The notes under the pieces were generated by a model. The model saw only the letters and a program-made list of their open reading frames with translations, was not told where the DNA came from and searched no databases. A stretch of 31,594 bases of DNA. Origin: a virus. Lineage: Duplodnaviria; Caudoviricetes. The position numbers and the translations under genes were made by a program. Below are positions 1 through 31,594 of the stretch, piece by piece (position 1 is the stretch's first letter; the number at the start of each line of letters is the position of its first letter). The DNA lies in the IMG/VR virus record IMGVR_UViG_3300050195_000027, positions 1 to 31,594 of that record. One strand, 5' to 3'.

Positions 1-28
1 ATGCGGGGGCATCCATGAAACGCGGACG

Positions 29-62
29 AAAAAAAAGCTCCTGATCGCTCAGGAGCTTTTTT
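29..62. terminator. Bidirectional rho-independent terminator downstream of the host tRNA 3' end
   Basis: AAAAAAGCTCCTGA-TCGC-TCAGGAGCTTTTTT: perfect stem with A and T tracts on both sides. Confidence 0.9.
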
Positions 63-73
63 CTTTTATCGGG

Positions 74-97
74 TGGGGTGGCTAATGGGACTCGAAC
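74..97 (-). other. Prophage att site: displaced 3' fragment of a tRNA-His-like gene
   Basis: Minus strand reads GTTCGAGTCCCATTAGCCACCCCA (T-loop, acceptor stem 3' side, CCA). tRNA similarity stops at 98, so there is no full tRNA here. Confidence 0.85.
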
Positions 98-181
98 TTA
101 GGCGATGGGGTGGCTGAGGTGTACCTCAGTGGAGTGTTTACCTATGAGCTAAACACCTACAGGCCCACCTATTCCAGCCGC

Positions 182-202
182 TTTATCCCGGGTTTTATCC
201 CG
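182..202 (+). repeat. Tandem 9-bp direct repeat, putative integrase arm-type sites
   Basis: TTTATCCCG at 182-190 and 194-202 (12-bp period), about 90 bp inside att. Confidence 0.5.
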
Positions 203-224
203 TGGGGTGGCGCATACTTCACGC

Positions 225-404
225 ATGGATCTGACCGACTGGATGTTCCTAGTCTACACCCTTGCAGGGTTGGCAGCTGTTTGGTTAGCAATCACTAACC
301 ATCGGTCGGCCGCCGCGAGGAACGCTCGTCGGCTCAATGCCGACCGCGCGCCGGAGCTTGTCCAGGGCGCCGGTGCAGATCTGCGAAACGCGCCCGGGCG
401 ATAG
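225..404 (+). CDS. Possible small membrane protein
   Basis: MDLTDWMFLVYTLAGLAAVWLAI has one hydrophobic segment; overlaps the sigma gene 3' end antisense. Confidence 0.25.
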   Translation: MDLTDWMFLVYTLAGLAAVWLAITNHRSAAARNARRLNADRAPELVQGAGADLRNAPGR

Positions 405-956
405 GCCAGCCAGCGCGGCAGTGCGCTGATCAGTTGCCCCACCTGCGGCCAAGCGCGGCGCCAGCATCGTCTGCTCACGCTCGCTGAGCGCGTCGAAAGC
501 CTGTTGCAGGCGATCGAACATCAGCCGCGCCTCGACCATGTCCTCGGTGAGATCGGGGCCGACCTCGTCGACCGCGAGCGCCGCGCCAGCGCCGCGCAGT
601 TTCTGGAGCTCCAGGAGCGGCACACCCAGCGCCGCGGCGACTTCGCCCTCCCGCGCCGCGCGGCCCAGGTGATGCTCCAGCCGCCGGCGCGCTTCGGCCG
701 CCTGCGACAACTGGCGCCTGTCGCCGCGCGGCAGCATGTCCATCCGGCGCAGCTCGTCGAGCATGGCACCGCGCATCTTGGTGTTCAGGTAGGCGCTGAG
801 CGGGACGCCGCGCGCGGCGTCGAACCGCGGCAGGTGCTCGTGCACGGCGATGAGCGCGACCTGCGCCAGGTCGTCGCGATCGACGGAGGTGGGCAGGTGC
901 CGGGCGAACCCATTGGCCGCGCGCTTCGCCATGGTGACGTGCGCGGCGGTGATCAC
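285..956 (-). CDS. FliA/WhiG (sigma-28)-like RNA polymerase sigma factor
   Basis: LPTSVDRDDLAQVALI, RFDAARGVPLSAY, RGAMLDELRRMD (region 2); LGRAAREGEVAAALGV (region 3); LSEREQ...GLSPGRVSQI (region 4). Confidence 0.85.
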   Translation of the reverse strand: MITAAHVTMAKRAANGFARHLPTSVDRDDLAQVALIAVHEHLPRFDAARGVPLSAYLNTKMRGAMLDELRRMDMLPRGDRRQLSQAAEARRRLEHHLGRAAREGEVAAALGVPLLELQKLRGAGAALAVDEVGPDLTEDMVEARLMFDRLQQAFDALSEREQTMLAPRLAAGGATDQRTAALAGLSPGRVSQICTGALDKLRRAVGIEPTSVPRGGRPMVSDC

Positions 957-957
957 G

Positions 958-1488
958 TCAGCCGCGCGGATCGGTCGCCACGTCCGGCGCCGCCTGGGCC
1001 TTGCCGCGGAAGAACGACGCGACGCCCAGGATCCCGCCCATCGCCAGCCAGGCCTCGGTGGGCACGACAGGCACGGGAATATGCGCCAGCGGCAGGACGA
1101 AGTAGACGCCGCCGAACATGACCCCGAACACGAAGCCGCAGAACGGCCGCCAGCTGTAGGTCGGCCAGTGGTCGGCCTTGTCCTCGGCCTGCATGGTGGT
1201 GTTCACCGAGTTGATCGCCGCCGTGTCGGCCGCCAGGCGGTTCGCCTCGGACTGCACGAGCAGCGTCTGCAGCTGGGTCTTGCTGTCGCTGGCGATCTGC
1301 GCCAGCTTGACGGCCGCGTCGGGGTTGGTGGCCAGCGCGACCTTGACGTCGTCCGGCGTGTTGGCGCAGCCGAGCGCGCTCGACACCATGGTGCCGATCG
1401 CCGCGCCGGCCGGGCCGCCGATGAGGGTGCCCAGGATCGGTGCCGAGGCGCCGATGTCTTTGGCCAGGTCTTTCCAGTTCAAGCTCAT
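958..1488 (-). CDS. Holin-like protein (3TM/GTA-holin type)
   Basis: N-terminal APILGTLIGGPAGAAIG, SWRP motif then hydrophobic helices; directly downstream of the endolysin. Confidence 0.7.
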   Translation of the reverse strand: MSLNWKDLAKDIGASAPILGTLIGGPAGAAIGTMVSSALGCANTPDDVKVALATNPDAAVKLAQIASDSKTQLQTLLVQSEANRLAADTAAINSVNTTMQAEDKADHWPTYSWRPFCGFVFGVMFGGVYFVLPLAHIPVPVVPTEAWLAMGGILGVASFFRGKAQAAPDVATDPRG

Positions 1489-1490
1489 GA

Positions 1491-2024
1491 TCAAGCGGCC
1501 TTCAGGTTTTCAGCGATGCGCTGCGCCCAGCCGCGCCCGAAGCGCGCCCACTGGTCCGGGTTGTCGTTCAGGTAGTCGAGGCGCCAGCCGTCGAATCGGG
1601 CCAGGAGCTGCCAGGGGTCGAGCGACTGCACGGCCTGCAGCGTGCGCGCGCCGAGCACGCCATCGTCAGCGACGCCGGCGGCGCGCTGTAGCAGCTTGAT
1701 CGCGGTGAGCACCCCGCCGTTCACCGCGGTATCGAACAGGTCGAACTTGACCTGCGGCGGCGCGCCGTCGCAGCCGGCCGGTCCCCAGTAGTCGAACTGG
1801 TAGAAGGACTTCACCATGACCTGCAGCGCGCTGTCGGATTCGAGGTTCTTCGGGAACCCCGGCTGCGTGCGGGCAGCGTCGATGCGCTGCCATCCTGGCC
1901 AGGTTGGATTCATCTTGCGGGCGACGCCTTTGTACGTCTCGCCGCCCCGGTCATGCGGGTCGTTGACGTAGCCGCCCTCGTGCTGCGAGTCGACCAGCTT
2001 GGTGAACGCGTCGTCGAAATTCAT
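1491..2024 (-). CDS. Endolysin, glycoside hydrolase family 108 with peptidoglycan-binding domain
   Basis: HEGGYVNDPHDRGGET motif, FDTAVNGG, LQRAAGVADDGVLG, FGRGW. Confidence 0.9.
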   Translation of the reverse strand: MNFDDAFTKLVDSQHEGGYVNDPHDRGGETYKGVARKMNPTWPGWQRIDAARTQPGFPKNLESDSALQVMVKSFYQFDYWGPAGCDGAPPQVKFDLFDTAVNGGVLTAIKLLQRAAGVADDGVLGARTLQAVQSLDPWQLLARFDGWRLDYLNDNPDQWARFGRGWAQRIAENLKAA

Positions 2025-2224
2025 GGGCGCGCCTCCGGCTGCTTGAGCTGTACTTCGAGCCGTTCGAGCCGCGCCTCGCGGCGCAGTTTGCGCACGGCGA
2101 TGACGATCTGCAGAACGGTGAAGATGAAGGTTGCGGCGCCGAGCAGGTGCGACATGGTCAGCCAGCTGCCGATCAGTCCCAGCCAGGAGAGCACTAGCGC
2201 AAGGAACGAGTTGTCGTGGGTCAT
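2021..2224 (-). CDS. Small holin-like membrane protein (67 aa)
   Basis: MTHDNSFLALVLSWLGLIGSWL...FIFTVLQIVIAV then a basic tail; TAATG and ATGA overlaps with its neighbours. Confidence 0.7.
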   Translation of the reverse strand: MTHDNSFLALVLSWLGLIGSWLTMSHLLGAATFIFTVLQIVIAVRKLRREARLERLEVQLKQPEARP

Positions 2225-4527
2225 TAGTTTCGCCAGACGCGGCAGACGTCGGTCACGGTCAACAGCCCGTTGGCCAGGTTGCGGTAGAGGCCGATCAGGC
2301 CGCCGAAGTACGGCCCGGCGATGGTGTAGGTGCCGATCAGTGCTTCGTCGACGTAGAGCGACATGACGCCGGCCGAGGTCGTCGAAACGCGATACGTGTG
2401 CGAGGCCGTCGAGAGGTTCGTCGCGCCGATCACGGTGGTCGTGTACGTACCTGGCGCGGTCGACTCGTCGACGCTGAGGAAGCCGCTGGCGTTCAGGCCC
2501 ACGGAGATCGCGCGCTCCGCGCTCGCCGTGCCGCTGGTGCTGCCGACGTTGGCGCCGGCCAGGATGAAACCCGACGACACCGTCAACTGACCGACCCATT
2601 CGATCTCCGTGGCCGCATCGGCCATGCGCGACAACCCGCATGCCGAGTCGTCGAGGAACATCACCGACGCGACGGACGTGAGGTCCATCTTCTTGGCGAT
2701 GAGCGTGCGGTGGGACGGGACCGCGGAGGCGTTGGGCAGCACCAGCGGCTTGCTGGTCGCCCGGAATCGAAGCGCGTTCATCACCAGGTAGCCGGCCGCG
2801 TTCGACGTGATGATCAGATGGTGGATGCCGATCGACAGATTGCGCGCGATCGGCGTCTCGAAGTCCTGCAGGAAGTTGCCTGTGCCGTAGCCGGCCAGGA
2901 CCTGCGAATACGTGCCGCCCACCCCGTAGCCATCAAGGCTCACCGACACGTTCGCACAGGCGATGGAGAAGATCGGCGAGAGCAGCGAGAGATCGAGCCC
3001 GCGTTGCGTGACGTTGAAGATCACGCGGATCGACTGCCCGGTGGTATTGCCGGTGTTCAGCGACGCACCCACACGCGATGACGTGTTCAAGCCGTAGGAC
3101 GGGTTGGTCGCACGCACGTGCGCTCCGACAACCGATAGGCGCTGGTCGGCTCCGCTGACGATCGCCGCTTGCGGACCGAGCAGTGCGGCCGCGTAGTTCA
3201 GGCCGACGAAGTTGTACGTGGTCTGCGAACCGTGCGCGCCGTCAGGCAGCACGCCGATACCTGTATTGCCATCCGTGCCGATCAACTGTGTCAGCAGGTT
3301 GTTGATGTCGACCAGCACAACGCCGTGCTTGGTGGCGACGTCCTTCATGATCTGAGTGAACTTCGCCGTCGCTTCGGCCCATGCGATCGTGCCGAAAGTG
3401 CCCACCGTCAGGATCGGGTGCGGAGTCGTCAGGATAGGCGTGACGTTGTACTTGCGGCACGTGTTGATGAAGATCAGCAAGTTCGCGCGGTACGTGGCCG
3501 CGCTCGCCGCGGTGTAGACCTTCGCGTCGTTCACGCAATGGTTGCAGAGCGCAGCCTTCGCCGTCGTCGCAGCCATCTTCGCGGCGAACGTCGAGCCGCT
3601 GCCATCAGTGCCTGCGAGCATCTGGGCCAGCGTGGTGCCGCCGAGGCCCATGTTCGTGACCGTGAACGACGTGTTGCCGAAGAACGTGTTGATCGTGTTC
3701 TGGAGCTGTTGCGGCGGGGGGATGGCGACAGCAACGGCGGTGTTCGCCGGATCAGCGCCGAACTGCGTCGAATCGCCGAACGCGAGCGCTAGCTGAGCCG
3801 TGCCAAGCGACAGATTCGTCATCATGTCCGCGAGCGCGTCGACGTCGATCACGTTCAACGTGGCGAAGTTCGCGGCCGTGGACGCGGCATTCGCAGCGAT
3901 GGACGCAGTATTCGCAGCGATGGACGCGGCATTCGCATCCAGCGTGGCTTTCACGGTGGTCGCGCCGTTGCCGATCAGCGTCGACCCCGTCGGCTGCGCG
4001 AGCGCGAGCGAAAGTGCCGTCGCGGACCCTGCCGCCGGCGCGACTGCGATCGGGTTGCCGTTGGTGTCGAAGCTCAACAGGTTGTTCGCGCGCTGCGCAA
4101 TGGCCGGCAGCGCGGACACGCCAGTGATCTCGGGCACCCGCAGAGCGTTGCCGATGGAGCCGAGCGCCTGCTGAATCAGAATCGTCAGTCGGTCGAGCGC
4201 GTCCTCGATCGTCTTCGGGAAGAACCCCCCGGCGTTGGTCAGGGATGCCGGCTGCGTCAACGGGACGGCGCTCGTCACGTTCAGGACGTACCCTGCCGGA
4301 AGCGCAACGATCGGCGTGATCGTGCCGCCGGGCGAGACGCCTTGATCGGAATTCAGAACGGCGGTGAAGTTTCCGCCGAGCGTCCACGTTGTGAGGTTGC
4401 CGCTCGTGTCGGTCTGGGTGATCACCAGATCGGACGTCTGGAACACCTTGAACGCAAACGGGTAGCTGACGAGTGCCCCGGTGCCGGTGAATGGTCCGGC
4501 GGTACGGGTCGTGGTCGAGATCGTCAT
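2224..4527 (-). CDS. Tail fibre/spike with SGNH esterase domain
   Basis: Podovirus fibre anchor (YPFAFKVF...IEDALDRLTILIQQ), heptad neck, SGNH blocks FGDS / NMGLGG / NHCVND / DGAH, beta-rich C-terminus. Confidence 0.85.
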   Translation of the reverse strand: MTISTTTRTAGPFTGTGALVSYPFAFKVFQTSDLVITQTDTSGNLTTWTLGGNFTAVLNSDQGVSPGGTITPIVALPAGYVLNVTSAVPLTQPASLTNAGGFFPKTIEDALDRLTILIQQALGSIGNALRVPEITGVSALPAIAQRANNLLSFDTNGNPIAVAPAAGSATALSLALAQPTGSTLIGNGATTVKATLDANAASIAANTASIAANAASTAANFATLNVIDVDALADMMTNLSLGTAQLALAFGDSTQFGADPANTAVAVAIPPPQQLQNTINTFFGNTSFTVTNMGLGGTTLAQMLAGTDGSGSTFAAKMAATTAKAALCNHCVNDAKVYTAASAATYRANLLIFINTCRKYNVTPILTTPHPILTVGTFGTIAWAEATAKFTQIMKDVATKHGVVLVDINNLLTQLIGTDGNTGIGVLPDGAHGSQTTYNFVGLNYAAALLGPQAAIVSGADQRLSVVGAHVRATNPSYGLNTSSRVGASLNTGNTTGQSIRVIFNVTQRGLDLSLLSPIFSIACANVSVSLDGYGVGGTYSQVLAGYGTGNFLQDFETPIARNLSIGIHHLIITSNAAGYLVMNALRFRATSKPLVLPNASAVPSHRTLIAKKMDLTSVASVMFLDDSACGLSRMADAATEIEWVGQLTVSSGFILAGANVGSTSGTASAERAISVGLNASGFLSVDESTAPGTYTTTVIGATNLSTASHTYRVSTTSAGVMSLYVDEALIGTYTIAGPYFGGLIGLYRNLANGLLTVTDVCRVWRN
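3869..3937. repeat. 21-bp tandem repeat (about 3.3 copies) encoding NAASIAA heptads
   Basis: ttcgcggccgtggacgcggca / ttcgcagcgatggacgcagta / ttcgcagcgatggacgcggca. Confidence 0.8.
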
Positions 4528-4533
4528 ACAGCG

Positions 4534-4564
4534 AGTCTCTGACCCGCCTACCGACCTATGTGAA
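4534..4564 (-). promoter_or_regulatory. Putative late promoter A (tail spike)
   Basis: TTCACA-19 nt-GAGACT-6 nt-ATG. Confidence 0.7.
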
Positions 4565-4569
4565 CTCGC

Positions 4570-7500
4570 CTAGTGGTGTTTCACGTCGCCGTGCATCACG
4601 CCGTTCCACCAGTCGGTGGCGCTCGTCGGGTCAGCCCTGCCTTGACCCACGTCCCACAGGAATTGCGCGACGTTGCTTGGCTGGCCCAGCGGCAGGTTCA
4701 GCACTGCGCCCGCCGTGGCGATCGTGTGCTTCACCCATTTGTCGCTGACGTCCTTCCCGGTGAGCGCGGCCGCCGCGTCCGCGCCGCTCTTGCCGACGGT
4801 GTCGACCAGGCCCGCCGCCGGCGTCGCGCTGTAGTCGCGGCCGGTGACGTAGTGCGCGTACAGGTCGCGCGCGATCGGGATGCCACCGAAGGCCACCGAG
4901 CCGAATTCCTTGGCGGCGTAGGCCAGCCACGATTCCGTGTCGTCGTCCTTCGGCGGATGGAACAGCGCATGCATGGTCTGCACGCCGATCGTGTAGACCA
5001 GGGTGCGCATGATGACCGTGCTGGCCAACTGCGTGTCGGTCCAGTGGTTCGCTTCCTTCATCGCGGCCCGGTGCTCCGGGCTTGCGATCAGCTTGCCGGT
5101 GTCGATGAGCCGGTTCACGTTGTGGTTCCAGAACGTGTAGAACATCGTGAACAGCTTCTGGAACTCGTTGCCGCGCTGGATCGCCGCCATGTCCTTGACG
5201 CCCGTGCCACCGTGCGCGTTGCGCACGGTCTTGTCGGCGAAGTAGACAGCGTCCTCCTCGCCTAGCCCGAGGCCGCCGTCCTTGATCGGCGACATACCCT
5301 TCAGGTAGGCACCCTGCCAGGTGGGCAGCGCGGTCAGCATGTCCAGGCCCCCGATCAGGTCGAACGCGTGCGATCGCAGCACGTTGGCGCCGCGCGCCAG
5401 CGCGCCGCTGGTGGTGTCCATCAGCTTCGTGTCGAGGTCGGTCAGGTACTCGCGGATGTCGCGGTCCTGCTCGTTGGCGCGGTTGCGCATCTCGCCGCTC
5501 TTCTCGAAGATCGCGGCCTTGTTCTCCGCCCATTGGGCCGGGTTGCTGAAGTCCCACAGCCCCTTCGACATCCACTTCGGCCCCAGCTCGGCGACCGACT
5601 CCGCGCCGGCCGACAGCCCGTGCACCGCGGCGGTCGTGAGGCGGAAACCCAGGCCGACCATCGTCGCGCGCGTGCGCGCTTCGTTGGCGATGGTGTTCAG
5701 CCACTTCCAACCGCGGTTGCCGTCAGGCCCCAGCTTGCCGTCGTTGGCGATCGACTGCAACCAGGGGCGGATCTGGTCGTAATGCTCCTGGCTCAGCGCG
5801 CCGACGATCGCCTTGCGCACGACGGGGTGCGACGTGAAGCGGTCCGCGTCGATCACGGCCTCGCGCCAGGCGATGTCGTGGATCTCGTCCTTGATCATGC
5901 GCGGCAGCGCGTCGAGGTCCATCAGGATCGGGCGCGCGTAGTTCTCGTTGCGGGTGTTCATCCGCCCGGTGTCGGTGTTCGCCTTGGTGTAGATGTTCTC
6001 GAACAGCGAGTCGCCCATGCGCGCGCCGCGTTCGGCGACGTCCTGACTGCGCGCCGGGTCGTACATCAGCGGCCAGTACCAGCCGCTGCGCGTCTTGCCG
6101 TCGGCAGTTTGGAACGGCCGCGGCGCGATCTTCTCCGGCGTGGTCGCGCCCAGGCGACGACCCATCGCCACCTTCTCAGGCCACAGCGTCTCCAACGTCT
6201 TGCCCATGCCCTCGACGAAGTCCCAGTGCGCCGTCGTCATGTTCTTGTGCAGGAAGTCCCAGACCGCGGCCTCGTCCCAGCCCTCCCCCTTGGCGAGCTT
6301 GCCGAGGTTGCTCTCGTTGCCGGCGTTGCCGGCGAGCATGAGCATCTCCTTCGTCGTGAACTTCTGCGGCTTGCCGGTCAGGCCGTCGATCAGGCCGTCG
6401 GCCGTGAAGATGCCCTTCGTCTTCGCGATGTCGTCCAGGTGCGCCTTGGCGAGCGCGTCGATACCCTCCTTCGTCGCCGACAGCAGGCTGGCCTCGTGCA
6501 CGCCGGCTTCGGACATCCGTCGGAACACGACCCGGTTCATCGCGCCCATCGGGTTGCGCGCGTCGATCCAGTCGAACATCTGCTCCATCTTCAGCAGCGA
6601 CGCCTGCGCGCTGCGACCAAAGGCCTTCGCGTCGAGCCACTTCTTGGCCATGCGCGTCAGGCCGCGGTTCGACTCGCCCTCGCGCTGCGGCAGCTTCGCC
6701 GCGGAGTCGCGCACTTCGTCGGCAAGCGCGGAGATGGCGCGGGCCTCCTGACCATCGCGCAGCTGGTTCTTCAGCTTGCCCAGTTGCTCGATCGCCTTGA
6801 CCGAGTCGACCAGGCCGCGGAACGCCGCGAACGGCATGTCCTTGTAGTGCCAGCGCGCGGCCTCGTTCAGCAGGTCCTCGGGCACGTCCGGCTTGTAACC
6901 GAGGGCGGCCATCTTCTCGACCCACGACTCGAGCGATGCGCGCTTGTCCAGCGCCACGTTGCTGACGCCCTTGCGCAGGTCGGCGCGCTCGAGCAGGCGA
7001 TCGATCTGGTCGCGGTAGTCGACGTCGATATTCTCGCGGACGGAGTCCTTCTCGAACTTCTTCAGGTACTCCAGCGACTTCGCGACGAAGTCGTTCGCGT
7101 CGCGCGCGGCGCGGCCCAGTTCCATGTTCAAGAGCTGGTCGCGTTTGGCCGTTGCGGCGCCCTCCGTGTCGCCCTTCATCATGGCCTTTTCGGCCTGCGT
7201 CGCGGAGCGCGTCTCCGCGGCCCGGAACTGCCCTTCGTTGATGTCGCGGATACGTTTCACGTCGATCGTGTTCGATGCGGCTTCCTTGGCCGCAAGCACC
7301 ATGTCGGAGAGCTTGCCTTTCGCTGTGCGAGTGGCGCCGGTGGCCGCGCGCAGCGCGCGCAGCTCCGAGGCGACGAACGTCGAGCGCACCTCGTTCTGCA
7401 CCAGCTCGTCGGCCGTGCGCGCCATCGCCTCGGGCGTCGAGATCTCGCCGTGCCGCTCGAGCATGCGCTGATCGACGATGCCGGACACGACCGCGCGCGG

Positions 7501-10500
7501 CGGCTCAGCCTGCGTGATCGCGTCGACCATCGACTCGATGTCCGGGAACTGGAACATGTCCGCCACCTCGCCGGGCGCCATGCCGTGGCCGGTGGTCGTC
7601 GTCATGCGCAGGTCCTGCAGGGGCTTGGCCTTGTCCTTGCCGACAGCCTCGCGCAGCGCGTCGAGGTCGATCTTGCCGGCGCCCGTGGTCGGATCCTTGG
7701 ATGCGGTGTCGGGCTTCGGCGGAGCGACCGGCTTCGGGTGCTCGGCGTCGTAGTCGATCATCGCGCGCTTGATGTCGAGGTCGATCCGCGCGCGGTTCTT
7801 CGCGAGCCACTGGCCCTTGGCCAGGCCCAGGTTCTTCGCCGGCAGCTTCGACTCGGGCGCCGCTTCCCAGGCCTTCGCCTTGACCTCGGCCTTCGCCTCG
7901 GCCTCGTGCTCGCTGCGCTTCTCGCTCCAGTCGCGCACCGCCTGCTGGTGCTCGGCGTTGATCTCGTCGGGCAGCTGCGCGCTGTCCTTGCCGGTGAGGA
8001 ACGACCAGGCGCGATAGACCGGCTCGCGCATCACTTCCGACCGTACCTCGAGCGTGATCGCCTGGCGCTTCACCGCGGCGTCGCGCTGTACGGCGCGCAG
8101 CGACGAGGTGCGCAGCCGGTCGGTCTTGGCCATGTCCTTCATGGTCTTGCCGATCAGGCTCTCGATCGCCTGCTCGGTGGCGTCCTTGCCGGTCGCCTGA
8201 TACTTGGCCCAGTCCTCCGGCGACATGCCGGACTTCTCCGGCGAATCGAACAGCGGCATGTACTTGCGAGCCATCTCGGCCTGATGGATCGCGTCGGTGC
8301 TGGCGATCATCCGGTCAAAAACGCCGCGCACCTCCGGCGTGAAGTCGCCCGGGGCGCCCTTCAGCGTCTGGTAGACCGACATCATCCACGCGCGGAAGCG
8401 CGAGAACAGGCCGCGCAGTTCCAGCGTGGGCGCCTGCCCCTTCATGAGGTAGGTCTCCCAGCCGGTGGCGAAGGCCTCGTGATGTTCGCGCTGCTCGTTG
8501 ACCGACATCTCGTGCCAGTCGTCCAGCGTGCCGATGCCTTGCCACTTCAGGAACGCGGCCATGTCGGCCTTGACCTGCGCCGGCGCGTCGGCCTGGGCCG
8601 CCATGTGGCTCAGCGTGTCGAGGAAAAAGTGGCCCAGCTCGTGCTGGAAGGTCGACAGGTTCGCGTCCTTCAGGAGCGCGATGGTCTTTTGGCCCGGGCT
8701 GAACTCGCCTCGGGCCTTCTGCGCTACGCGCTCCTGGTAGAAGCTGCCAGCGAGGCCGCTACCAGCGTCTTCGCCTCGACCACCCTCGACCCGATATAGC
8801 TCGTCCAGAAGTGCTCGTCGTGCTCCCTCGCCTTGTAGAAGGGAATGGAACAGAGCATTTCGACGTAGAGTGGCTTGGCCTGGCGCACCAGCGCCCGCGT
8901 CTCCGCGACCGAAGTCCGAAAGGACTCGGAAGACATCAGGGCCGTCAACGACGGCGCCTTCTGAGTCTGCGAAGCGGCCATGGGCCGCATCATACCGAAT
9001 CCCGTCCGAAATCGGGGCCAACTTTGCGTTGGCGCCGGTGGTCGCATCCATGAGCGAACGCACGTTGGCGAGCGTGTCGCCGGCCTTCCATGCCAGTGGC
9101 GGCACGGTCTTGTCGCCCTTGAGCTGTTTCGGGTGCGGCTCGAGGTGATCGGTCGTGCCGTACTTCACGGCCGACGACAGCATGTTCTCCGCGCGCCGCA
9201 CCATGGCCGCCTTGGACACGCCGGCCGGGTCACCGACGAACTTCAGGCCGTTGTTGCGCGCGTAGTTGGCGGCCAGGTCGTAGACCAAGCTGCCACCGCT
9301 GCCGGGCTTCAGGCCGGCCACGTTGATCCAGACCTTGTCGCCGTGGCGGGTCATGATCGCGGTGCCGCTGCCATCGGGCGACACGATGTCCCAGTTGCCG
9401 GTGTGCTTCTCGCTGCCGTCCATCTGCGTGACCGTCTCGGGCGTCACCTTCAGGCCAAGCGACTTGTCGGCCGCGATCTTGACCGGGTCCTTCTCGTTGG
9501 ACTTCGGGTACTGGAACAGGTCGTCGCGCTTGCCCATCTCCATCAGCGCGGCGGCCGGGCCGAGGTGATCGTCCTCGATGTGCGGCACGTCCTGGGCGTA
9601 CTTGTCGCCGAGCAGCTCGCGATTAGTGGCCTTGACAGGGTACTTCGCAGCGAATTCGTCCGGCATCACGCCGGTGCGGTCGGCCTGCGTCTTGTAGAAC
9701 TCGCGCAGCAACATGCTGTTCGCCTCGAGCTGGTCGGGGCGCATCTTCAGGCCGGCGAGGTTGGCGTCAACCTGGGCGTTCATGCGATCGACGCTCGCCT
9801 GGTAGGCCGCGTTGTTGTCGTGCGTGTCCGCCAGCGCCTGCGCGCGGGACTGCAGATCGGCCTGCTGCTCTTGCTTGAGCGTGTCGCCCTCGGCGGCCGT
9901 GCCGCTTTCCGGCGTCACGCGCGCGTTCGCGAGGAACTGCTGCTCGAACTTGCTGCCCGCAATGTGCGTCGCGAAGTCCTCGATCGGGATCGTCACCAGC
10001 GCATTGCGCGGCGCGTTCTCCCCGAGCGCAGCGTCCATCTGGCTCGCGACATCAGGCATGGTCTGGCGCAGCTCGTCACCGGACACGCCGGCCTGCTGCA
10101 GGATCTCGGCGAACTTCGCTCCCTCGATGTGCACGCTGTGCATGTCGCTGCCATCCGCGGCGTCAGCCACGAACTGCTTGAACGCCGCAGGGTCGCGCTC
10201 GCGCAGCTTGCTAGCGACAGCCGCCTTCGAGATCTCCGCGAGTTGTGCGTTCTGGGCTTCGCTTCGGGCGGCCTGATAGGCCTCGGCATAGCTGTCGCGA
10301 ACCGCGGGCAGCGCCGAGGCGTCGCGCGGCCCCATGGCGCCGCCGAGCGCGGCGCCGGTGATCATCGACAGGAACTGGTTCTCCCAATCGAACGACGTCT
10401 GCATCGTGTCGGGCGATGCAGCGTTCATGATCTGGCGGGACGCCTCACCGGACGCGGCGCCGCTCAGCGCCCCGGTCAGCACGCGCTTCACCAGGCCACC

Positions 10501-19861: not shown

Positions 19862-19877
19862 TTTATCGGCTGCTAAA
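19862..19877. promoter_or_regulatory. Operator-like palindrome overlapping a sigma-28-type -10 box
   Basis: TTTATC-GGCT-GCTAAA; minus strand contains GCCGATAA 12 nt before the capsid ATG. Confidence 0.5.
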
Positions 19878-19884
19878 GCCGAAG

Positions 19885-20574
19885 TCAATTCGAGTTGGGG
19901 TAGAGAACCTTGGCCGCGGACTTCTGGGTGCCGGGGGCCGTCCCGCCCGCGACGTGCTTGCTCTCGGAGAACGCGGGCGCGATGGTCAAGAAGTGCCGGA
20001 TCAGCTCCGGGTTGTTGACCAGGCCGCTCGTCTTCAGCAGTTCGCGGAACGCGGGCGTCGTCGTGGCCTGCATCGCGGTGCGCGCCTTGGACATGTTCTC
20101 GGCCAGCTTCTCGCCGCCGAGTTCAGGGTCCGCGCTCACCGCTGCGTGGTTGGCCTCGATCGTCGCGAGGCGCGCCGTCTCGGCTGCAGCTGCAGCGCGC
20201 GCGGCCGCCGTGGCGCCGCCCTTCTCTGCCAGCTTCGCGACGAGAGCGAACGCGTCTTGCGCCTTCGCCTGGCTCATCCCCAGTTCCTTCGCGAGCGTCG
20301 TGAACTCCGTCAGCAGCTCGCCGGCGGGCGCGGTCACGCCCTCGGGAGCCGTGAAATCCGCATACGTCTCGGGCGCGCCCTCGTCCGCCTTCGGCGGATC
20401 TACCGGCTTGCCTTCTGCGTCGAGAACCGGATCAGCGGATTGCTCCGTGCCAGTCTGCTGATTCGCGGGCTGGTCGCCCGTCGCGGTGGTGTCCGCGGCG
20501 GTCGACGCGTCCGCGCCAGTTGCTGATACCGCGGTGGTGTCCGTGGTCGTGGTCAGCGAGGTTTCGATGGTCAT
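19885..20574 (-). CDS. Capsid scaffolding protein
   Basis: Low-complexity acidic N-terminus, APETYADF, AKELGMSQAKAQ, GLVNNPELIR, KVLYP C-terminus. Confidence 0.85.
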   Translation of the reverse strand: MTIETSLTTTTDTTAVSATGADASTAADTTATGDQPANQQTGTEQSADPVLDAEGKPVDPPKADEGAPETYADFTAPEGVTAPAGELLTEFTTLAKELGMSQAKAQDAFALVAKLAEKGGATAAARAAAAAETARLATIEANHAAVSADPELGGEKLAENMSKARTAMQATTTPAFRELLKTSGLVNNPELIRHFLTIAPAFSESKHVAGGTAPGTQKSAAKVLYPNSN

Positions 20575-20909: not shown

Positions 20910-22409
20910 TCACGACGCGGATGGAATTTGCACGCTGGCCTGGTAAGCGGCCATCTCCGGTGCGGCTTCATGGAGGCCATCCACGCTGAAATCCCAGACC
21001 CCGATGGGGCAGGTAACGCCCGACACCGTGAGGATTGCAGGCTGCGTGACGGCGCCGGAGAGGTTGTAGAGACCGACCTGTGTCGCGCTGATGTACTGCA
21101 TGCGCTGATAGAGCGTGGCGCCTGCGGTGCCAGCACCAGGAACCATCACCTTGTGACCGTGGTCTGCGGGCGTGAAGTTCGCGGTGGCGGAGGTAAGCAG
21201 GTTCGATCCCACCGTCATTGCGCCGTCGGTGACAGTGCGGGCGTTCTGGTACACCTTCCAGAACGGTGACCCCGGGTACTGCTCGAACCCTGCTGCCTCG
21301 TCGATCACGTAGTCGACAGGCAAAAGGCCCTGAAGCGCTTGCGTGCGCCAGGCCAAACGGGCTGCGTCGTTCGCGCCCGCGACTTGGCCAGTGGTCGACA
21401 TCAGGAAGTCGCTCGTCGACGCGATGAAGGGTGACATCGTTCCCGCGCCGATGCGCTTTCCGACGACATACGGGAGCGCCTTGACCGCCTTGAGATTGGC
21501 GACCATCGTCGCAATCCCTGTGCCCAGGTCGTTGATGGGACCACCCACATATACCTGGGTGACGTATTGCAGAAGGTCGCGTCGGATAGCGCCGTGCGAG
21601 GTCAGAAAATTCGCCAGGCTGTCGCTGGCAGCAGAGAGGTTCAGGAAAGCACCCCAGCGACCGAACGCGCGCTCTGCGGTGCCTACGAAGCCATTGGCGT
21701 CGGTGATGAAGTCATTCGCCGCCCCGGCGATCTGCGCGACATGGCGAGAGTTGCCGACGATGCCCACGGATTCGCACGAGGTATAGGCGAGAACCGCGGT
21801 CGGCGCGACCTTGTAGGGAAGCGCGAAACTGGGCGAGTACCCGGTTTGCGTGAAGTCCAGGGTCGTGCCCACCACGCTGCTGGTAGTGATCGTCTCGTTG
21901 TTCGAACCGATCACGGCATCGCAGCCCGCTTGCACGTTGATGCCGCTGGTCGGGTTGCCGACCCATTTGTTGATGTAGGCCTTGGTGCCCTTCTTGAACC
22001 CCGGCGCGTAGGTGAACGCGTCCGAGATCAGCTTCCCGCCCGGAGGATTGGCGCCTGTACGTGAACCGTTGTAGGTGACGGTTCCGATGATGTTGCCCAG
22101 GGGGTATTCAATCGTGTAGGTGTAGTACTCCACATCACTGCCGGGCGTCTCGTTGAGGCCCCAGGCGTTCACGTCAAGAAGCTGGATCGTGTTGACGTTG
22201 TCGGCGAACTTCACATACGACCGGCCGCCAGCTTGAGTAGCTGCGATGTTGTAGTACGGGTAGCGCAGACGATCGGTGACGACGCGCAGGGCCAGGGGTT
22301 GGTCCGGGGTGCTCGTCAGATGTTCGACGCCGGACGGATCAACGTAGCCAACGAGCTTTCCCGTCGACAGGTCGAACAGAGAAGATCCCTTGCGGTGATA
22401 GCCACTCAT
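20910..22409 (-). CDS. Accessory SGNH-like esterase (499 aa) inserted in the head module
   Basis: Start MSGYHRKG; blocks VGNS / LNLSAASD / GGPIND / DGLH; more A/T-ending codons than flanking genes. Confidence 0.7.
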   Translation of the reverse strand: MSGYHRKGSSLFDLSTGKLVGYVDPSGVEHLTSTPDQPLALRVVTDRLRYPYYNIAATQAGGRSYVKFADNVNTIQLLDVNAWGLNETPGSDVEYYTYTIEYPLGNIIGTVTYNGSRTGANPPGGKLISDAFTYAPGFKKGTKAYINKWVGNPTSGINVQAGCDAVIGSNNETITTSSVVGTTLDFTQTGYSPSFALPYKVAPTAVLAYTSCESVGIVGNSRHVAQIAGAANDFITDANGFVGTAERAFGRWGAFLNLSAASDSLANFLTSHGAIRRDLLQYVTQVYVGGPINDLGTGIATMVANLKAVKALPYVVGKRIGAGTMSPFIASTSDFLMSTTGQVAGANDAARLAWRTQALQGLLPVDYVIDEAAGFEQYPGSPFWKVYQNARTVTDGAMTVGSNLLTSATANFTPADHGHKVMVPGAGTAGATLYQRMQYISATQVGLYNLSGAVTQPAILTVSGVTCPIGVWDFSVDGLHEAAPEMAAYQASVQIPSAS

Positions 22410-22429
22410 GGTGCGGTTCGCTTTCGTTG

Positions 22430-24145
22430 TCAGGTGTAGCCGCTGAACCCGGCGGTCGGGCTTGCGGGATGCGCGGTTTGGACGAGGCCGCCGCGCGAGA
22501 CGAGGGACGCCAGGGCGGTGTTGTTGCCCATCGGCGCGTTGGCCAGCTTCTGCACGGTGTCGGCCTGCTGGTTCGCCGCGGCGGCGTCCTGCTGCTTCTG
22601 CGCCTGCTGCGCGCGGCCTTGACGGATCAGCGCCACCTTGTCGTTGCCGACGATCAAGCTCGGCGAGATGCCCAGCATGTCGCTGTACTCGTCGGCCCAA
22701 TCGTCCGCGTCGAACTTGTCGAGGACGCCGGGCGCGAAGGCTGCGATCTGGCCGAGGTTGCCGACGAAGCGGTCGATCGAGTTCGTGCCGATCGCGCGCT
22801 GCGCCTGCGCCAGCATCGAGATGAACTCGACCTGCAGCGTGACGCCGTGCAGCTCCTGCGGCGGCGGCGGCAGCATGCCGACGCGCAGCATGCGGTTGAA
22901 GGTCGACTGGATGAGCGGGTTCAGCTCCTCGTTGTGCAGGCGCTCGACGGTCGGGCCGAGCATCAGCATCTTTTCCTCGTGACGCTCGGCGACCTCCGTG
23001 GCCGTCATGCGAGTCTCGTTCTGCTCGCTGAGCATCAGGAAGAGGTCGGCGTAGAACGCGGACTTGATGCGCTCGCGCACGTCTGCGATGTCGGCGCCGA
23101 GGTGGCTCAAGTCGATGCGTACTTCAAAGGCGGACTTGATCGCTTCGGTGCCGTCGCCGAACGTGATGCCGCCCGGCAGCATGTCCGTCTCGCGGTTCTT
23201 GTACGAGGTCGGCGCCACCAGCGGCGGCTTGACCATGTAGTCGATCGCCTGCGCCTTGCGCAGTTGCTCCTGCTGCAGCTGCTTGACGTCGCCCAGCGCT
23301 TCCATCCCCGGCGAGTTGCCGTAGATGTCGCCGCCCGAGACGGACCAGCGCGAGCACAGGCCCGGGAACTCGTTGTAGCCGGACTCGAGCAGGTACTGGT
23401 CCTCGCTCGCCCCCTGCTCGAAGTAGCACGAGCGGAAGGCCATGTTCTTGGCGGCCTTGCTCTTGAAGTCGCGCTCGCGGTCCGCGCGCGGCTCGATGAT
23501 CTGGATGATCGGCACCCAGGCGCCGAGCGTGCCGGCGTCCCACAGACCTTGCACCGTCTTGCTGCACTGCTTGTAGCCGAACTCCTTGACGCACTCCGCG
23601 ACCGTCTTCTCGAACTCGCGGGCCATCGTGTCGACGTTGCCTTTGAAGTCCGTCGCGATGCAGTACTCGCCGGCGGTGAGCGAGGCGTGATGCACGACGG
23701 TCTTGTAGTCCGGCATGATGACCTTGGCCGCGGTGCCGAACACGCCCAGTTCCTCGTAGGTCTGGTGCAGCGCGCGGTACACGTTCGACTTGTTGAACAC
23801 CGTCAGCATCAGCTGCGTGCACGCGTCGAGCCAGATCTTGACTGGCTGGTGCTTGTTCAGGTCGGCATCGGGCGTCGACAGGCGAAACCATGGCCGCGCC
23901 GGGCTGGTCATGCCTGACATCATCCCGGCGGCCAGCACGCGCACCGCGCGCGTCCCGGTGGAGTCGTAGATGTTGTTGTGCCGGCGCGCGCCGCGGTTGC
24001 GGTCCTGGATGAAGTAGCGCCCCGAGCGGGGCAGCAGGAACTTCGACAGCTCCGTCCAGTGCGGCATCCAGCTGGCGCGCTCGTCCTTCAGCTCGCCCCA
24101 GCGCCGAAGCAGGTCACTGCGCTTGGTGTAGTCCGTCTCGCGCAT
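22430..24145 (-). CDS. Portal (head-tail connector) protein
   Basis: IYDSTG...GMTSPARPWFRL, YGNSPGMEALGD, MTATEVAERHEEKMLMLGP; true start MRETDY. Confidence 0.93.
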   Translation of the reverse strand: MRETDYTKRSDLLRRWGELKDERASWMPHWTELSKFLLPRSGRYFIQDRNRGARRHNNIYDSTGTRAVRVLAAGMMSGMTSPARPWFRLSTPDADLNKHQPVKIWLDACTQLMLTVFNKSNVYRALHQTYEELGVFGTAAKVIMPDYKTVVHHASLTAGEYCIATDFKGNVDTMAREFEKTVAECVKEFGYKQCSKTVQGLWDAGTLGAWVPIIQIIEPRADRERDFKSKAAKNMAFRSCYFEQGASEDQYLLESGYNEFPGLCSRWSVSGGDIYGNSPGMEALGDVKQLQQEQLRKAQAIDYMVKPPLVAPTSYKNRETDMLPGGITFGDGTEAIKSAFEVRIDLSHLGADIADVRERIKSAFYADLFLMLSEQNETRMTATEVAERHEEKMLMLGPTVERLHNEELNPLIQSTFNRMLRVGMLPPPPQELHGVTLQVEFISMLAQAQRAIGTNSIDRFVGNLGQIAAFAPGVLDKFDADDWADEYSDMLGISPSLIVGNDKVALIRQGRAQQAQKQQDAAAANQQADTVQKLANAPMGNNTALASLVSRGGLVQTAHPASPTAGFSGYT

Positions 24146-24474
24146 CAACCGCCCAGAAGCGAGGTCTGGCCGAGCGTGAGCTGCGTCGGATCGACGCCGC
24201 TGGGGCCTGTCAGCATCGTGCCGGCGGCGCCCTGCTTGCCGGCGGCGAGGTTGGCCTGCAGCTGCGCGGCGACGTCCGGCGTCTTGGCGTTGGCCTGATT
24301 GTTGGCCTCGTCGGCCATCTGCTGGTTCTTCGCCGCGGCGGTTGCTGCCTGGGTGTTGGCCGCGTTCTGGCGCTTGCCGGCCTGGTTGGCGCTGTACGCG
24401 TTGTAGGCGGTGCCGGCTGCGGCGACGGCTGCACCGATCTCGGCGACTGCGACAGCGGAGAGACCGAAGCTCAT
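24145..24474 (-). CDS. Small virion-associated protein
   Basis: Ala/Gln-rich, ends TMLTGPSGVD...LGQTSLLGG; TGATG overlap with portal. Confidence 0.75.
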   Translation of the reverse strand: MSFGLSAVAVAEIGAAVAAAGTAYNAYSANQAGKRQNAANTQAATAAAKNQQMADEANNQANAKTPDVAAQLQANLAAGKQGAAGTMLTGPSGVDPTQLTLGQTSLLGG

Positions 24475-24935
24475 TGCAGTTCCAGGTTCGCGCGGCGCGA
24501 GAGCAGGCGCGCCGCATCGGCGCACAGCGCGTCCTCGATCGCCTTGACGTCGGTGCCGCCGGTGGGGTTGATGCACACGCAGAGCCAGAACGTGTCGGCG
24601 TGCGTGACGCCGATGCGCTTGTGGCCGGCCAGCGCGGGCACGACGTGAATCCCGGTCAGGCGCTTCGGCCCGCTCTCGGTCTGCACGGTGATGTCGCCGA
24701 CGGCGATCGAGAGCGTGCCCTGGCAGTGCGCGCCTCCGAGCAGCACGTGCTCCGCGGGGATGCGCACGCTACGGCCGTACAGCCGATCGTCGTCTGCGAA
24801 AAAGTGCTCGGTGCTCAGGTCGATGACGTGGCCGCGCTCGTGCTCGATCTCGTTCATGAACGCCTCGATCGCCGCGAATTGCTCGGGCGTCGGCTGCGCG
24901 GTCAGCGCGCTGGGATCAATCGTGGAGACCTGCAT
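24471..24935 (-). CDS. Hypothetical protein, cupin-like beta fold
   Basis: HFFADDDRLYGRSVRIPA...AGHKRIGVTHADTFW; start inferred from promoter D. Confidence 0.65.
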   Translation of the reverse strand: MQVSTIDPSALTAQPTPEQFAAIEAFMNEIEHERGHVIDLSTEHFFADDDRLYGRSVRIPAEHVLLGGAHCQGTLSIAVGDITVQTESGPKRLTGIHVVPALAGHKRIGVTHADTFWLCVCINPTGGTDVKAIEDALCADAARLLSRRANLELQ

Positions 24936-26541
24936 AAGGGTCATGCTCACGGCCGCCACCCGGCTTATGTGAACCGCCCTTGCCTGGCTTCTTCGCTTTA
25001 GGCGTGTCGATCATCGCGAGGATCACGGCCACCGCGCGGTCGACGGACCGGCGGATCTTCTCGAAGATCTCCTCGCGGCTCGCGACCTTGATCACCAAGC
25101 CGGACATCGACCAGGTCGGCGTGCAGAGCTCGATCAGCAGGTCCTTGTCCGGGGGCAGCGCGACGCCGACGTCGTTGGCCGGGTCGAGCGCCTCGCGCAT
25201 GCGCCACCACAGCTCGGAGCGCTGGTTGAAGAACCGCAGGCGCCCGCTCTTGTCCGTGCCCAGCGCCTTCTCGCTGACGTTCACGCCCATGACCTGCAGC
25301 TGCATGCCGTTCAGCACGTCGTAGGGCGATGCGCCTACGCCGATCACGTCGATGTGGATCGGCGCCTCGTCGCGACGCGACGCGATCACCAGGCCGGCGA
25401 CCATCGGGCCATCTGGCGTCTCGGTGCCAGCGAAGATCTTCAGGCGATCGATCCACCAGCCCTTCGAGCCGTCCGGGTTCGCGTGTCGGTTGGCGATCGT
25501 CGTGTTGTCCTTGCCACCGCGCGCGACGTCGACGCCCTGCCCCATCATCTCGCCCTTCGGCGAGCGGTCGACCCAGCGCGCCATCGCGGCCTCGACCCAC
25601 GCTGTGGGAATCACCTGCCACGGGTCGTCCTGCATGCCGGCCTGGAAGTCGCCGTACAGCATCTGGCTGCGCAGCGGCTCGGGCATGGCCTGCAGCACGC
25701 GCAGATAGCCCGAGCCGGCCAGGTGCGGGTTGTCCGAGATCCGCGACGGGATGAACGTGCGCGACTGCGGCTCGATGATGTCCTCGGGCGCGAACTCCTT
25801 CGGGTCGAAGTCGTAGACCAGCACGCCGTTGACCAGCACGCAAGGCGCGGCGGTGTCGACCCACACGTCGCGGCTCGTACCGTTCTCCGCGGGCAGCATC
25901 ACGCAGTAGCGGATCTCGCCGGGCGCGGTGGGGTACAGCGGGTGCTTCTTGTCGAGCCACGGGCCGAAGAAGTCGACGATCCATCGGCCCTCGGCGTTGG
26001 TGGGCGGGTTGAACGTGAGCAGCGCCTGGCTGCGCACCTTGTTGCTGTTCTCGTCGTAGCTGGTCGAACGGTTCCAGCCCAGGAGGAAACGCACCTGGAG
26101 CTCGAGGAAGTTCGCGGCCTCGTCGAACACCAGCAGGTCGTGCGGGCGGCCTTGCTGGCGCTGCTCGTCGCCGAGGTTAGGGCACGAGCCGAACTCGATC
26201 AGCACCTTGCGCGGCCCGGCGTCGCGCCACACGCGCTTCGTCGAGTTGTAGCCGTCGTCGTTGCCCAGCAGCTTGCGCATCCGCTCCTCGATGCCCTGCA
26301 GCTGCGTCCCCTCGCGGCGCATGATCAGCACCTCGTGCGCCTTCATCACGGCCTTGCCGATCGCGAGGTCGGACTTGCCGCCGCCGGCCGCGCCGCCGAA
26401 GCCCACGATATCGGCCTCCGAATCGTAGGCCATGGTCTGCGGGCCGGGCAGCGGGCGCCACAACGGCTGGCGCGCCAGCAGCTCGCGGCCGCGCGCGATG
26501 GCCTCCTGCAGGATCGCGCGCTCGCGCACGGTCAGCGTCAT
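24916..26541 (-). CDS. terL: Terminase large subunit
   Basis: Walker A GGAAGGGKS, Walker B LLVFDEA, TFNP, nuclease GVDVARGGKD; ATGA overlap with terS. Confidence 0.92.
   Translation of the reverse strand: MTLTVRERAILQEAIARGRELLARQPLWRPLPGPQTMAYDSEADIVGFGGAAGGGKSDLAIGKAVMKAHEVLIMRREGTQLQGIEERMRKLLGNDDGYNSTKRVWRDAGPRKVLIEFGSCPNLGDEQRQQGRPHDLLVFDEAANFLELQVRFLLGWNRSTSYDENSNKVRSQALLTFNPPTNAEGRWIVDFFGPWLDKKHPLYPTAPGEIRYCVMLPAENGTSRDVWVDTAAPCVLVNGVLVYDFDPKEFAPEDIIEPQSRTFIPSRISDNPHLAGSGYLRVLQAMPEPLRSQMLYGDFQAGMQDDPWQVIPTAWVEAAMARWVDRSPKGEMMGQGVDVARGGKDNTTIANRHANPDGSKGWWIDRLKIFAGTETPDGPMVAGLVIASRRDEAPIHIDVIGVGASPYDVLNGMQLQVMGVNVSEKALGTDKSGRLRFFNQRSELWWRMREALDPANDVGVALPPDKDLLIELCTPTWSMSGLVIKVASREEIFEKIRRSVDRAVAVILAMIDTPKAKKPGKGGSHKPGGGREHDPYAGLHD
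24943..24973 (-). promoter_or_regulatory. Putative late promoter D embedded in the terL 3' end
   Basis: TTCACA-19 nt-GAGCAT-7 nt-ATG. Confidence 0.7.
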
Positions 26542-31169: not shown

Positions 31170-31594
31170 ATGGTCAAGAACGCATCCGCCGACAGCACGC
31201 AGGCTCCGGCAAACGTCAAGTACGAATTTGTCGAGGGTGACGCCAAGGTCATCTTCCCGGGCCGCGTGGCGCGCCGCATCCGCGCCGTGGTGGCGATTGC
31301 CGCGATCGGCGTCACGCCGGGGCAGCTCGGTGGCTACATCGAAGCCGAAGTTAATCTTGCGCAGGTCTCCGGCAACGCGTGGGTCTACGGCAACGCGCAG
31401 GTCTCCGGCAACGCGCGGGTCTCCGGCGACGCGCTGGTCTACGGCAACGCGCGGGTCTCCGGCGACGCGCTGGTCTACGGCAACGCGCGGGTCTACGGCG
31501 ACGCGCTGGTCTACGGCAACGCGCGGGTCTCCGGCGACGCGCTGGTCTACGGCAACGCGCGGGTCTCCGGCGACGCGCTGGTCTACGGCAACGC
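31170..31594 (+). CDS. Hexapeptide-repeat (left-handed beta-helix-like) phage protein, truncated at the window end
   Basis: GGAG RBS; MVKNASAD...KYEF...GQLGGYIEAEVNL then (GNARVS/GDALVY)n. Confidence 0.8.
   Translation, partial: MVKNASADSTQAPANVKYEFVEGDAKVIFPGRVARRIRAVVAIAAIGVTPGQLGGYIEAEVNLAQVSGNAWVYGNAQVSGNARVSGDALVYGNARVSGDALVYGNARVYGDALVYGNARVSGDALVYGNARVSGDALVYGN
31359..31594 (+). repeat. 18-bp coding tandem repeat (about 13 copies, 36-bp higher-order unit)
   Basis: ggcaacgcgcgggtctcc / ggcgacgcgctggtctac alternating. Confidence 0.92.

Follow-up and report, generated by a model that had tools for sequence, protein, structure and literature searches.

Phages encode sigma70-family proteins such as T4 gp55 and SPO1 gp28 and gp34, whose genes belong to the essential core and are matched by cognate promoters in the phage. 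Host-like phage sigma factors are already established for sporulation in Bacillus, where several phages (Bcp1, Wip4, and others) carry SigF/SigG-like alternative sigmas. These proteins are proposed to act on the host regulon (10.1101/2021.11.12.468384; PMC2716549), and the sporulation-like sigmas are described as non-essential and as activating the host network (10.1101/2021.11.12.468384). Temperate phages also target the FliA-controlled flagellar program: prophages with fliC_P-TldR rely on the FliA of their host, and their RNA-guided protein represses host fliC (PMC10705468; 10.1101/2025.07.22.666180). FliA itself (sigma-28; TIGR02479) has sigma2, sigma3, and sigma4 without sigma1, as described for P. 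aeruginosa (9wsm and 9wsf) and E. coli (6pmi) (PMC12784957; 10.1101/2020.01.02.893370). Our literature searches, whose scope mostly excluded subscription journals, returned no description of a phage-encoded FliA, the flagellar equivalent of the sporulation-type sigmas, and the supplementary sigma tables of 10.1101/2021.11.12.468384 may list such genes.

Here, we describe a FliA-derived sigma factor encoded by a temperate phage. The stretch of DNA analyzed (the window) is a whole virus record of 31,594 bp with an estimated completeness of 73%, about a quarter of the phage genome, ~44.8 kb in full, being absent. Leaf-litter metagenomes account for 23 of the 24 sequencing runs listed for this record. 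The gene set is that of a temperate podovirus, comprising repressor-like genes, a primase-helicase, terminases, portal, capsid, tail tube proteins, internal virion proteins, a tail protein, an endolysin, and a holin-like gene, with all late genes on the minus strand. The capsid protein is 68% identical to that of Limnohabitans phage DC33 and 54% identical to that of phiV10. We conclude that the window is an integrated phiV10-like podovirus. The integrase side of the prophage is missing, and the window ends in a tandem array coding for GNAxVS/YG hexapeptide-like repeats (31360-31594), which is the likely cause of the assembly break.

The tail protein (2224-4527, minus strand) has a GDSL/SGNH esterase-like domain that scores under the cut-off. 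Only the N-terminal ~160 amino acids are in common with the relatives G001 and G008, beyond which the C-terminal part has been swapped, and a related tail module is present in other contigs from the same runs. A pectin-lyase-like ORF and a tail-fibre-adhesin-like ORF flank the portal among the head and packaging genes (20910-22700 and 24471-24959, minus strand).

The left end of the window contains an attachment boundary (Table 1). Bases 74-97 are identical to the attP core of the complete relative G001/L003, in which the order is holin, core, integrase. Contigs over bases 1-73 have depths of 27.7-31, compared with 6-13 on the phage side, and a second contig in one run (X1) is common to the window over 64-93 before continuing into other DNA. 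Bases 1-73 thus behave as host DNA. Because a tRNA-His core, a depth step, and a diverging X1 contig are all found here, we read the boundary as attR, the sigma gene lying within the integrated prophage. This agrees with the initial annotation, which had placed the sigma last in the lysis cassette and inside the att boundary. No excised attP form was identified among the contigs of eight runs, and no excised circle was seen directly. The host flank and att core had no match in the genome contigs searched; none of 301 genomes sampled from one class contained the exact core, nor did any of 3 others, and Rfam searches returned just terminator-like chance matches. The repeats and the box in the phage att arm might serve as integrase arm sites. 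In the close relative G008, the same arm repeats accompany a different tRNA-like att core (29425-29450). When record 3 of run X1 is compared with window bases 64-97, a second element appears to be integrated at the same tRNA-His site, with the same host flank and divergence after base 93.

Table 1. Features at the left end of the window, from the host flank to the lysis genes.
Feature	Position	Strand	Basis
Host flank, with intrinsic-terminator-like hairpin at 31-62	1-73		Depth; divergent contig
att core (attR), 3' 24 nt of tRNA-His	74-97	-	Match to attP core of G001/L003
Phage-side att arm containing a TTTACCTATGAGC box and TTTATCCC twice, at 182-189 and 194-201	98-224		Common to G001 and G008
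Small convergent ORF (MDLTDW...) containing a single hydrophobic segment	225-404	+	Homologous to 32-aa ORF in G008
FliA/sigma-28-derived sigma factor, 223 aa (sigma2, sigma3, shortened linker, sigma4)	285-956	-	Pfam, NCBIfam, alignments, model
Holin-like 3TM protein (PF11351, GTA_holin_3TM-like; phrog_1544/3427)	958-1485	-	Profile matches
Endolysin (GH108 + PG_binding_3)	1491-2024	-	Profile matches
Hydrophobic ORF, 67 aa, flanked by the tail protein and endolysin genes; related ORFs in L003 and L005	2021-2224	-	No family match

The sigma gene is an intact ORF with a GTG start and no internal stop, and its frame, its coordinates, and the single base separating it from the holin-like stop (which ends at 958) are as first annotated. 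It ends 187 bp inside the tRNA-His att core. The GTG start is supported by the three closest relatives, whose M/V-I/V-T starts align in register. The Pfam domains Sigma70_r2 (residues 17-71), r3 (82-120), and r4 (153-202) all score above their gathering cut-offs, and there is no sigma1.1, a layout that fits the group 3 sigmas FliA and WhiG. The top NCBIfam model is TIGR02479 (FliA/WhiG; E = 2.9e-34), and the protein is placed among the FliA family in quick trees; the proposed FliA origin is supported. The HMM check of family membership is divided, however: the three Pfam regions pass, but the curated scores are not reached for either TIGR02479 (118.7 bits against a cut-off of 189.6) or NF005413 (103.5 against 201), even though these remain the top-scoring families. 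An AlphaFold model has confident helical domains (mean pLDDT 88), with poor prediction of the linker (128-133) and the C-terminal tail (residues ~208-223). The top non-integrative PDB match is the P. aeruginosa sigma-28 RPo 9wsm, and a viral fold search returned only distant sigmas with at most 21% identity. The neighbors of the gene are the holin-like gene, the endolysin, and the att site, with no flagellar or chemotaxis operon. Judged by its sequence, the protein is FliA-derived, yet it lacks the score, the context, and much of the FlgM surface of the family and would not be an ordinary FliA.

We find that the sigma gene is an accessory insert. A survey of related phages, which the initial annotation had proposed, covered 50 of 80 loci with capsid relatives (positive control, 5/5) and detected the sigma in 0 of the 50, including 0 of the 15 that are at least 90% complete. 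It was likewise not found at 47 holin-related viral loci. Absence from all 15 near-complete relatives suggests that the gene is dispensable for the lineage. The holin stop and the att core are 860 bp apart in the window versus 259 and 253 bp in the two closest complete relatives, whose capsids are 91-95% identical to that of the window. In G008, which has no sigma, the homologue of the small convergent ORF (29168-29266, minus strand) stops at the holin stop, whereas the window ORF continues and overlaps the sigma gene by 120 nt in antisense; the last ~16 sigma residues read antisense into it. Comparison of these two arrangements would therefore place the insertion of the sigma in the interval that runs from the holin stop to approximately base 318. 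The convergent ORF had no Pfam match and no relative in the viral scan. It possibly encodes a membrane peptide expressed in the lysogen for exclusion, and its transcript would run antisense to sigma region 4. L003 has a hydrophobic ORF in the same slot (5513-5728, minus strand) that is unrelated to it.

Among 1.84 billion representative proteins, the three top matches to the window sigma (P0060, P0061, and P0062; 200-208 aa) are 45-49% identical. Other FliA-like proteins follow at about 31-48%, with higher values arising from partial matches. The four proteins share their start, a short linker, and clade-specific changes, and over our clade alignment (A2) members are 42-48% identical to the window sigma. 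In a quick tree, they form a clade (SH-aLRT 99) with end branches of ~1 change per site and intact frames, which argues for long persistence. The phylogeny proposed earlier thus recovers a clade of four near betaproteobacterial-type (Comamonas-type) FliA, but that placement is weakly supported and involves long branches. All trees were quick trees; the second kept 40 of 78 rows, with 38 mostly long-branch or redundant rows dropped, including P0115. The longest contig for P0060 (42,230 bp) is phage-sized, a hint of its setting. Neither P0060-P0062 nor P0115 was returned by viral, metagenome, and genome scans with A2 or P0060, and a single-protein scan of viral contigs gave 14 pattern matches and no relative of the sigma.

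FliA-like sigmas are rare in viral contigs, with tens of matches in 2.9 million. A pattern scan detected 31 loci. Four of these were rejected as host fliA: L079, which lies beside fliZ/fliY-type genes; L082, a near-identical enterobacterial-type FliA adjoining an integrase; and L083 and L084, taken as the same as L082 from identical match data. Removal of two near-duplicates left 25 loci, and neighbors were inspected for 24. In 14 of the 24, the sigma is co-oriented within lysis, tail, or terminase modules: it has lysis or holin-like neighbors at seven loci (L054, L077, L080, L081, L087, L088, and L096), tail or virion neighbors at three, and lies just before terminase genes at four. The sigmas of L077 and L080 follow a member of the phrog_1544 family, as the window sigma does. 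Neither late nor flagellar genes were recognized among the neighbors examined at the other ten loci. The viral set is polyphyletic; L091 groups with Phycisphaerae FliA (support 100), and L081 lies inside a gammaproteobacterial group (96) with Woeseiaceae FliA. Phages have thus captured fliA separately, as in L081 and L091. No named proteobacterial phage was matched by tblastn among the 50,697 records of INPHARED.

Some phage-borne copies differ further. Most of sigma3 is lost in L054, L088, L095, L096, L101, L102, L103, and P0115, which are about 170-200 aa and thus of ECF-like size; these copies mostly retain the extended -10 Arg. A separate WhiG/FliA-like sigma family occurs on high-GC contigs (L051-L053, L069-L073, and L076), three of which are viral records of ~150 kb. 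In L098, a gene with a Tad2-like anti-defence domain (7690-8082) lies just downstream of the sigma.

Residues were mapped through PDB alignments and an alignment of 65 database FliA-like proteins (genomic context unverified), 20 viral copies, and five clade members; L049, L050, L099, L104, L105, and L106, which are truncated or odd, were left out. PMC12784957 names 18 residues of P. aeruginosa (Pa) sigma-28 as -10 or extended -10 contacts. In the window sigma, ten of these are identical, three are conservative or of E. coli (Ec) type, and five are changed. Region 2.2 D29/L30/Q32 and region 2.4 are kept. All five clade members keep Ec D81, R84, D87, R91, R94, R220, and Q223, although conservation is biased at L80, D81, and R84, which the retrieval patterns fixed. 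Retention is similarly high across the 20 phage copies (R74, R91, and D87 in 19 each; Q223 and R220 in 17 each). Changes in the window sigma include Pa R104 to S, Pa R80 to K, and Ec K208 to Q; an E. coli mutant at the Pa R104 position shows a drastic loss and an Ala mutant of Pa Q228 cuts transcription (PMC12784957). The corresponding -35 reader, Q192, is kept in all five clade members, as is R189 (Ec R220). The initial annotation had pointed to RGAMLDELR in region 2.4 and ATDQRTAALAGLSPGRVSQ in region 4.2, both of which are present, and had suggested that a diverged region 4.2 alters -35 recognition. Divergence is indeed found at Ec E218 and S219, directly before the kept -35 residues (Pa S224 is changed too), and at K208 and E209, but the key Gln and Arg are untouched. 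Because the residues near this Gln and Arg change to varied letters within the clade, the pattern suggests that -35 reading is loosened rather than re-specified.

The surface that faces FlgM shows the opposite trend. Ec L199/Y200/Y201 (Pa L204/Y205/Y206) is kept in none of the five clade members, while the 65 database proteins have L or M in 64, Y in 63, and Y in 64 at these positions; among the viral copies, 10 of 20 retain Y200 and 10 of 20 retain Y201. The Pa L204 position is Pro in the window sigma and Pa Y206 is Leu. The Pa L204R substitution weakens FlgM binding, with a Kd of 422 nM compared with 2.2 nM (PMC12784957). Among 12 named non-linker FlgM contacts, several of which also vary among database FliAs, five are identical (Pa L187, A203, P96, R82, and R90), one is conservative (I191), and six are changed (Pa L200, L204, Y206, E209, L210, and R40). 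The sigma3-4 stretch spans 52 residues in the window sigma and 40-52 in the clade, compared with 63-80 in database FliAs, and in 9 of the 20 viral copies it is shorter than in any of the 65. Sigma-finger deletions impair holoenzymes (PMC12784957). From these residues, the window sigma is predicted to be insensitive to FlgM. The sigma4 face that bears the FlgM contacts probably also binds the beta-flap of RNA polymerase, so its alteration may weaken activity rather than free the sigma. General sigma4 drift, or GC pressure favoring Tyr-to-Arg changes, could also have altered this face.

The gene resembles its phage neighbors in GC3 (0.87), and its CAI (0.60) is the lowest among 15 phage genes. 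Six variant sites were detected in four runs, four of them synonymous; the others are G133D (three runs) and G184D, a minor allele on one low-depth contig that affects the conserved helix-turn Gly184. The synonymous excess (4/6 versus 27% expected) has a p of about 0.05, with five sites coming from one contig of depth 2.3. In the phage pair L088/L092, dN/dS is 0.50 for the sigma versus 0.08-0.26 for five neighbors, and the sigma of this pair is constrained but relaxed. No sigma70-type promoter was found in window 1-5000, nor an obvious ribosome site belonging to the sigma. The 1-nt gap and the lack of a detected promoter of its own suggest expression with the lysis transcript, and the sigma is likely made from the late or lysis transcript by read-through or translational coupling.

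We find no FliA-type promoters through which the sigma might act on the phage. The exact pattern is absent from the phage, and a relaxed scan allowing at most one mismatch per box gave 0 sites in the window (controls, 0-4). FliA-type sites are not enriched in sigma-bearing loci (17 in 283 kb) relative to sigma-less loci (19 in 222 kb), and the 300 nt preceding the window sigma and each of 13 phage-borne copies contain none. One perfect GCCGATAA (19870, minus strand) lies 13 nt ahead of the capsid start; it was rejected as a FliA promoter since it lacks a TAAA-type -35 box and is also present in the complete, sigma-less G008. An inverted repeat, CTTTA...CGATAAAG, precedes the capsid start (19863-19885, minus strand) and is found at the same place in the closest relatives (L110, L111, L128, and L132). 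It is probably a translation-control hairpin, and holds a chance GCCGATAA in two lineages. The suggested role in reading phage promoters is thus unsupported for promoters of FliA type, with none here and the gene absent from complete relatives. Given that there is no two-box FliA promoter in the phage, no enrichment, and a capsid octamer shared with sigma-less G008, the targets of the sigma, if any, are most likely host genes.

We tentatively favor, at slightly less than an even chance, a scenario modeled on the Bacillus phage SigF/G copies and sporulation: a probably FlgM-insensitive sigma, made with the lysis transcript, misfires the FliA regulon of a host assumed to possess FliA and FlgM. 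A host-derived FliA would have entered the phage as an accessory gene, taking the last position in the lysis operon. With region 2.2 D29/L30/Q32 and region 2.4 kept, it is predicted to load onto host RNA polymerase. It is also predicted to recognize host promoters of FliA type (GCCGATAA) and to be free of inhibition by FlgM. Flagellin and chemotaxis genes would then be switched on out of their normal order and, speculatively, the phage would benefit if the induced cell swims or leaves a biofilm before it bursts. Against this, several residues important for activity are lost (R104, R80, and K208), the sigma finger is short, and late expression would leave little time before lysis. A broader version is unlikely in our judgment: that unrelated temperate phages repeatedly captured fliA into late or lysis operons, where the copies convergently lost the FlgM face and had sigma3 trimmed or removed but retained the helices that read DNA. 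Such copies would be brake-proof motility switches that make induced cells swim or disperse before the burst, carrying progeny to new hosts.

The changes that count against activity fit a different outcome, in which the protein binds core RNA polymerase and perhaps FliA promoters but initiates poorly, so that transcription of flagellar or housekeeping genes in the host is dampened, either late in infection or in the lysogen; flagellar phage receptors might be hidden in this way. We consider such a dominant-negative competitor improbable. It would account for R104 to S, R80 to K, K208 to Q, the short sigma finger, and the 9 of 20 phage-borne copies with a sigma3-4 stretch below all 65 database FliAs. 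However, ECF sigmas function without sigma3, and base-reading residues are selectively retained across phage copies, which fits productive recognition but also promoter blocking. Bacillus phage sigmas do reduce the trait they resemble (10.1101/2021.11.12.468384; PMC2716549). To a similar degree, we doubt that the gene is a near-neutral passenger, a fliA fragment slowly decaying in the late operon and useless to the phage. Its absence from 50 of 50 relatives, the lowest CAI, an apparent read-through tail overlapping the convergent ORF, two of six variant sites that change amino acids (one at a conserved Gly), and the weak constraint in L088/L092 all point that way. Yet frames are intact and key residues are common across a clade only 42-48% identical to the window sigma, late modules have recurrently and independently captured such genes, and four of six variant sites are synonymous (27% expected; p about 0.05, with five from one depth-2.3 contig).

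Two further roles are much less probable. A phage late sigma in the manner of T4 gp55 or SPO1 gp34, directed at late promoters of the phage itself, would be consistent with the perfect GCCGATAA 13 nt before the capsid start and with the four other phage copies directly before terminase genes. It is very unlikely, as that octamer has no -35 box and recurs in sigma-less G008, the window has 0 two-box sites (for the FliA-type motif only), and the gene is last in the late operon and absent from complete relatives. Least probable is a decoy that soaks up host FlgM and thereby frees host FliA. Some FlgM contacts do remain (Pa L187, A203, P96, R82, and R90, with I191 conservative), but L200, L204, Y206, E209, L210, and R40 are changed and the linker that packs against FlgM is shortened. 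A decoy would be expected to keep its FlgM face and lose its DNA face, the reverse of what is seen; with L204/Y205/Y206 lost in five of five clade members, the earlier proposal that the sigma titrates FlgM is disfavored.

In comparison with bacterial FliA, the window sigma has the same domain layout and keeps the -10 readers of regions 2.4 and 3.0 and the -35 Gln and Arg. Unlike bacterial FliA, it lies in a lysis operon rather than a flagellar one, is about 30-40% identical, scores below the family cut-off, has no FlgM-facing LYY and no N-terminal leader, and has a linker about 11-28 residues shorter. T4 gp55 and SPO1 gp28 and gp34 differ from it as core genes, whereas the window sigma is an accessory, host-like gene in a phage that lacks a set of FliA-type promoters. 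The fliC_P-TldR phages act on the same flagellar program with host FliA (PMC10705468; 10.1101/2025.07.22.666180), whereas the window phage carries the sigma itself. No flagellin was recognized among the window ORFs scanned, with about a quarter of the genome missing. The Bacillus phage sigmas belong to another subfamily and to the sporulation regulon; here, the regulon would be that of motility and the host is probably proteobacterial. The genes bcp25,26 and wip38,39 need their own upstream promoters (PMC2716549), and none was found for the window sigma. If active, this gene family would give phages direct control of the motility regulon, with the FlgM checkpoint bypassed. The family also supplies test proteins for asking which sigma-28 surfaces serve promoter reading and which serve anti-sigma control. 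We class the window sigma as a variant of the phage-borne, host-like sigma factors: it descends from a host alternative sigma, and its gene lies inside attR.
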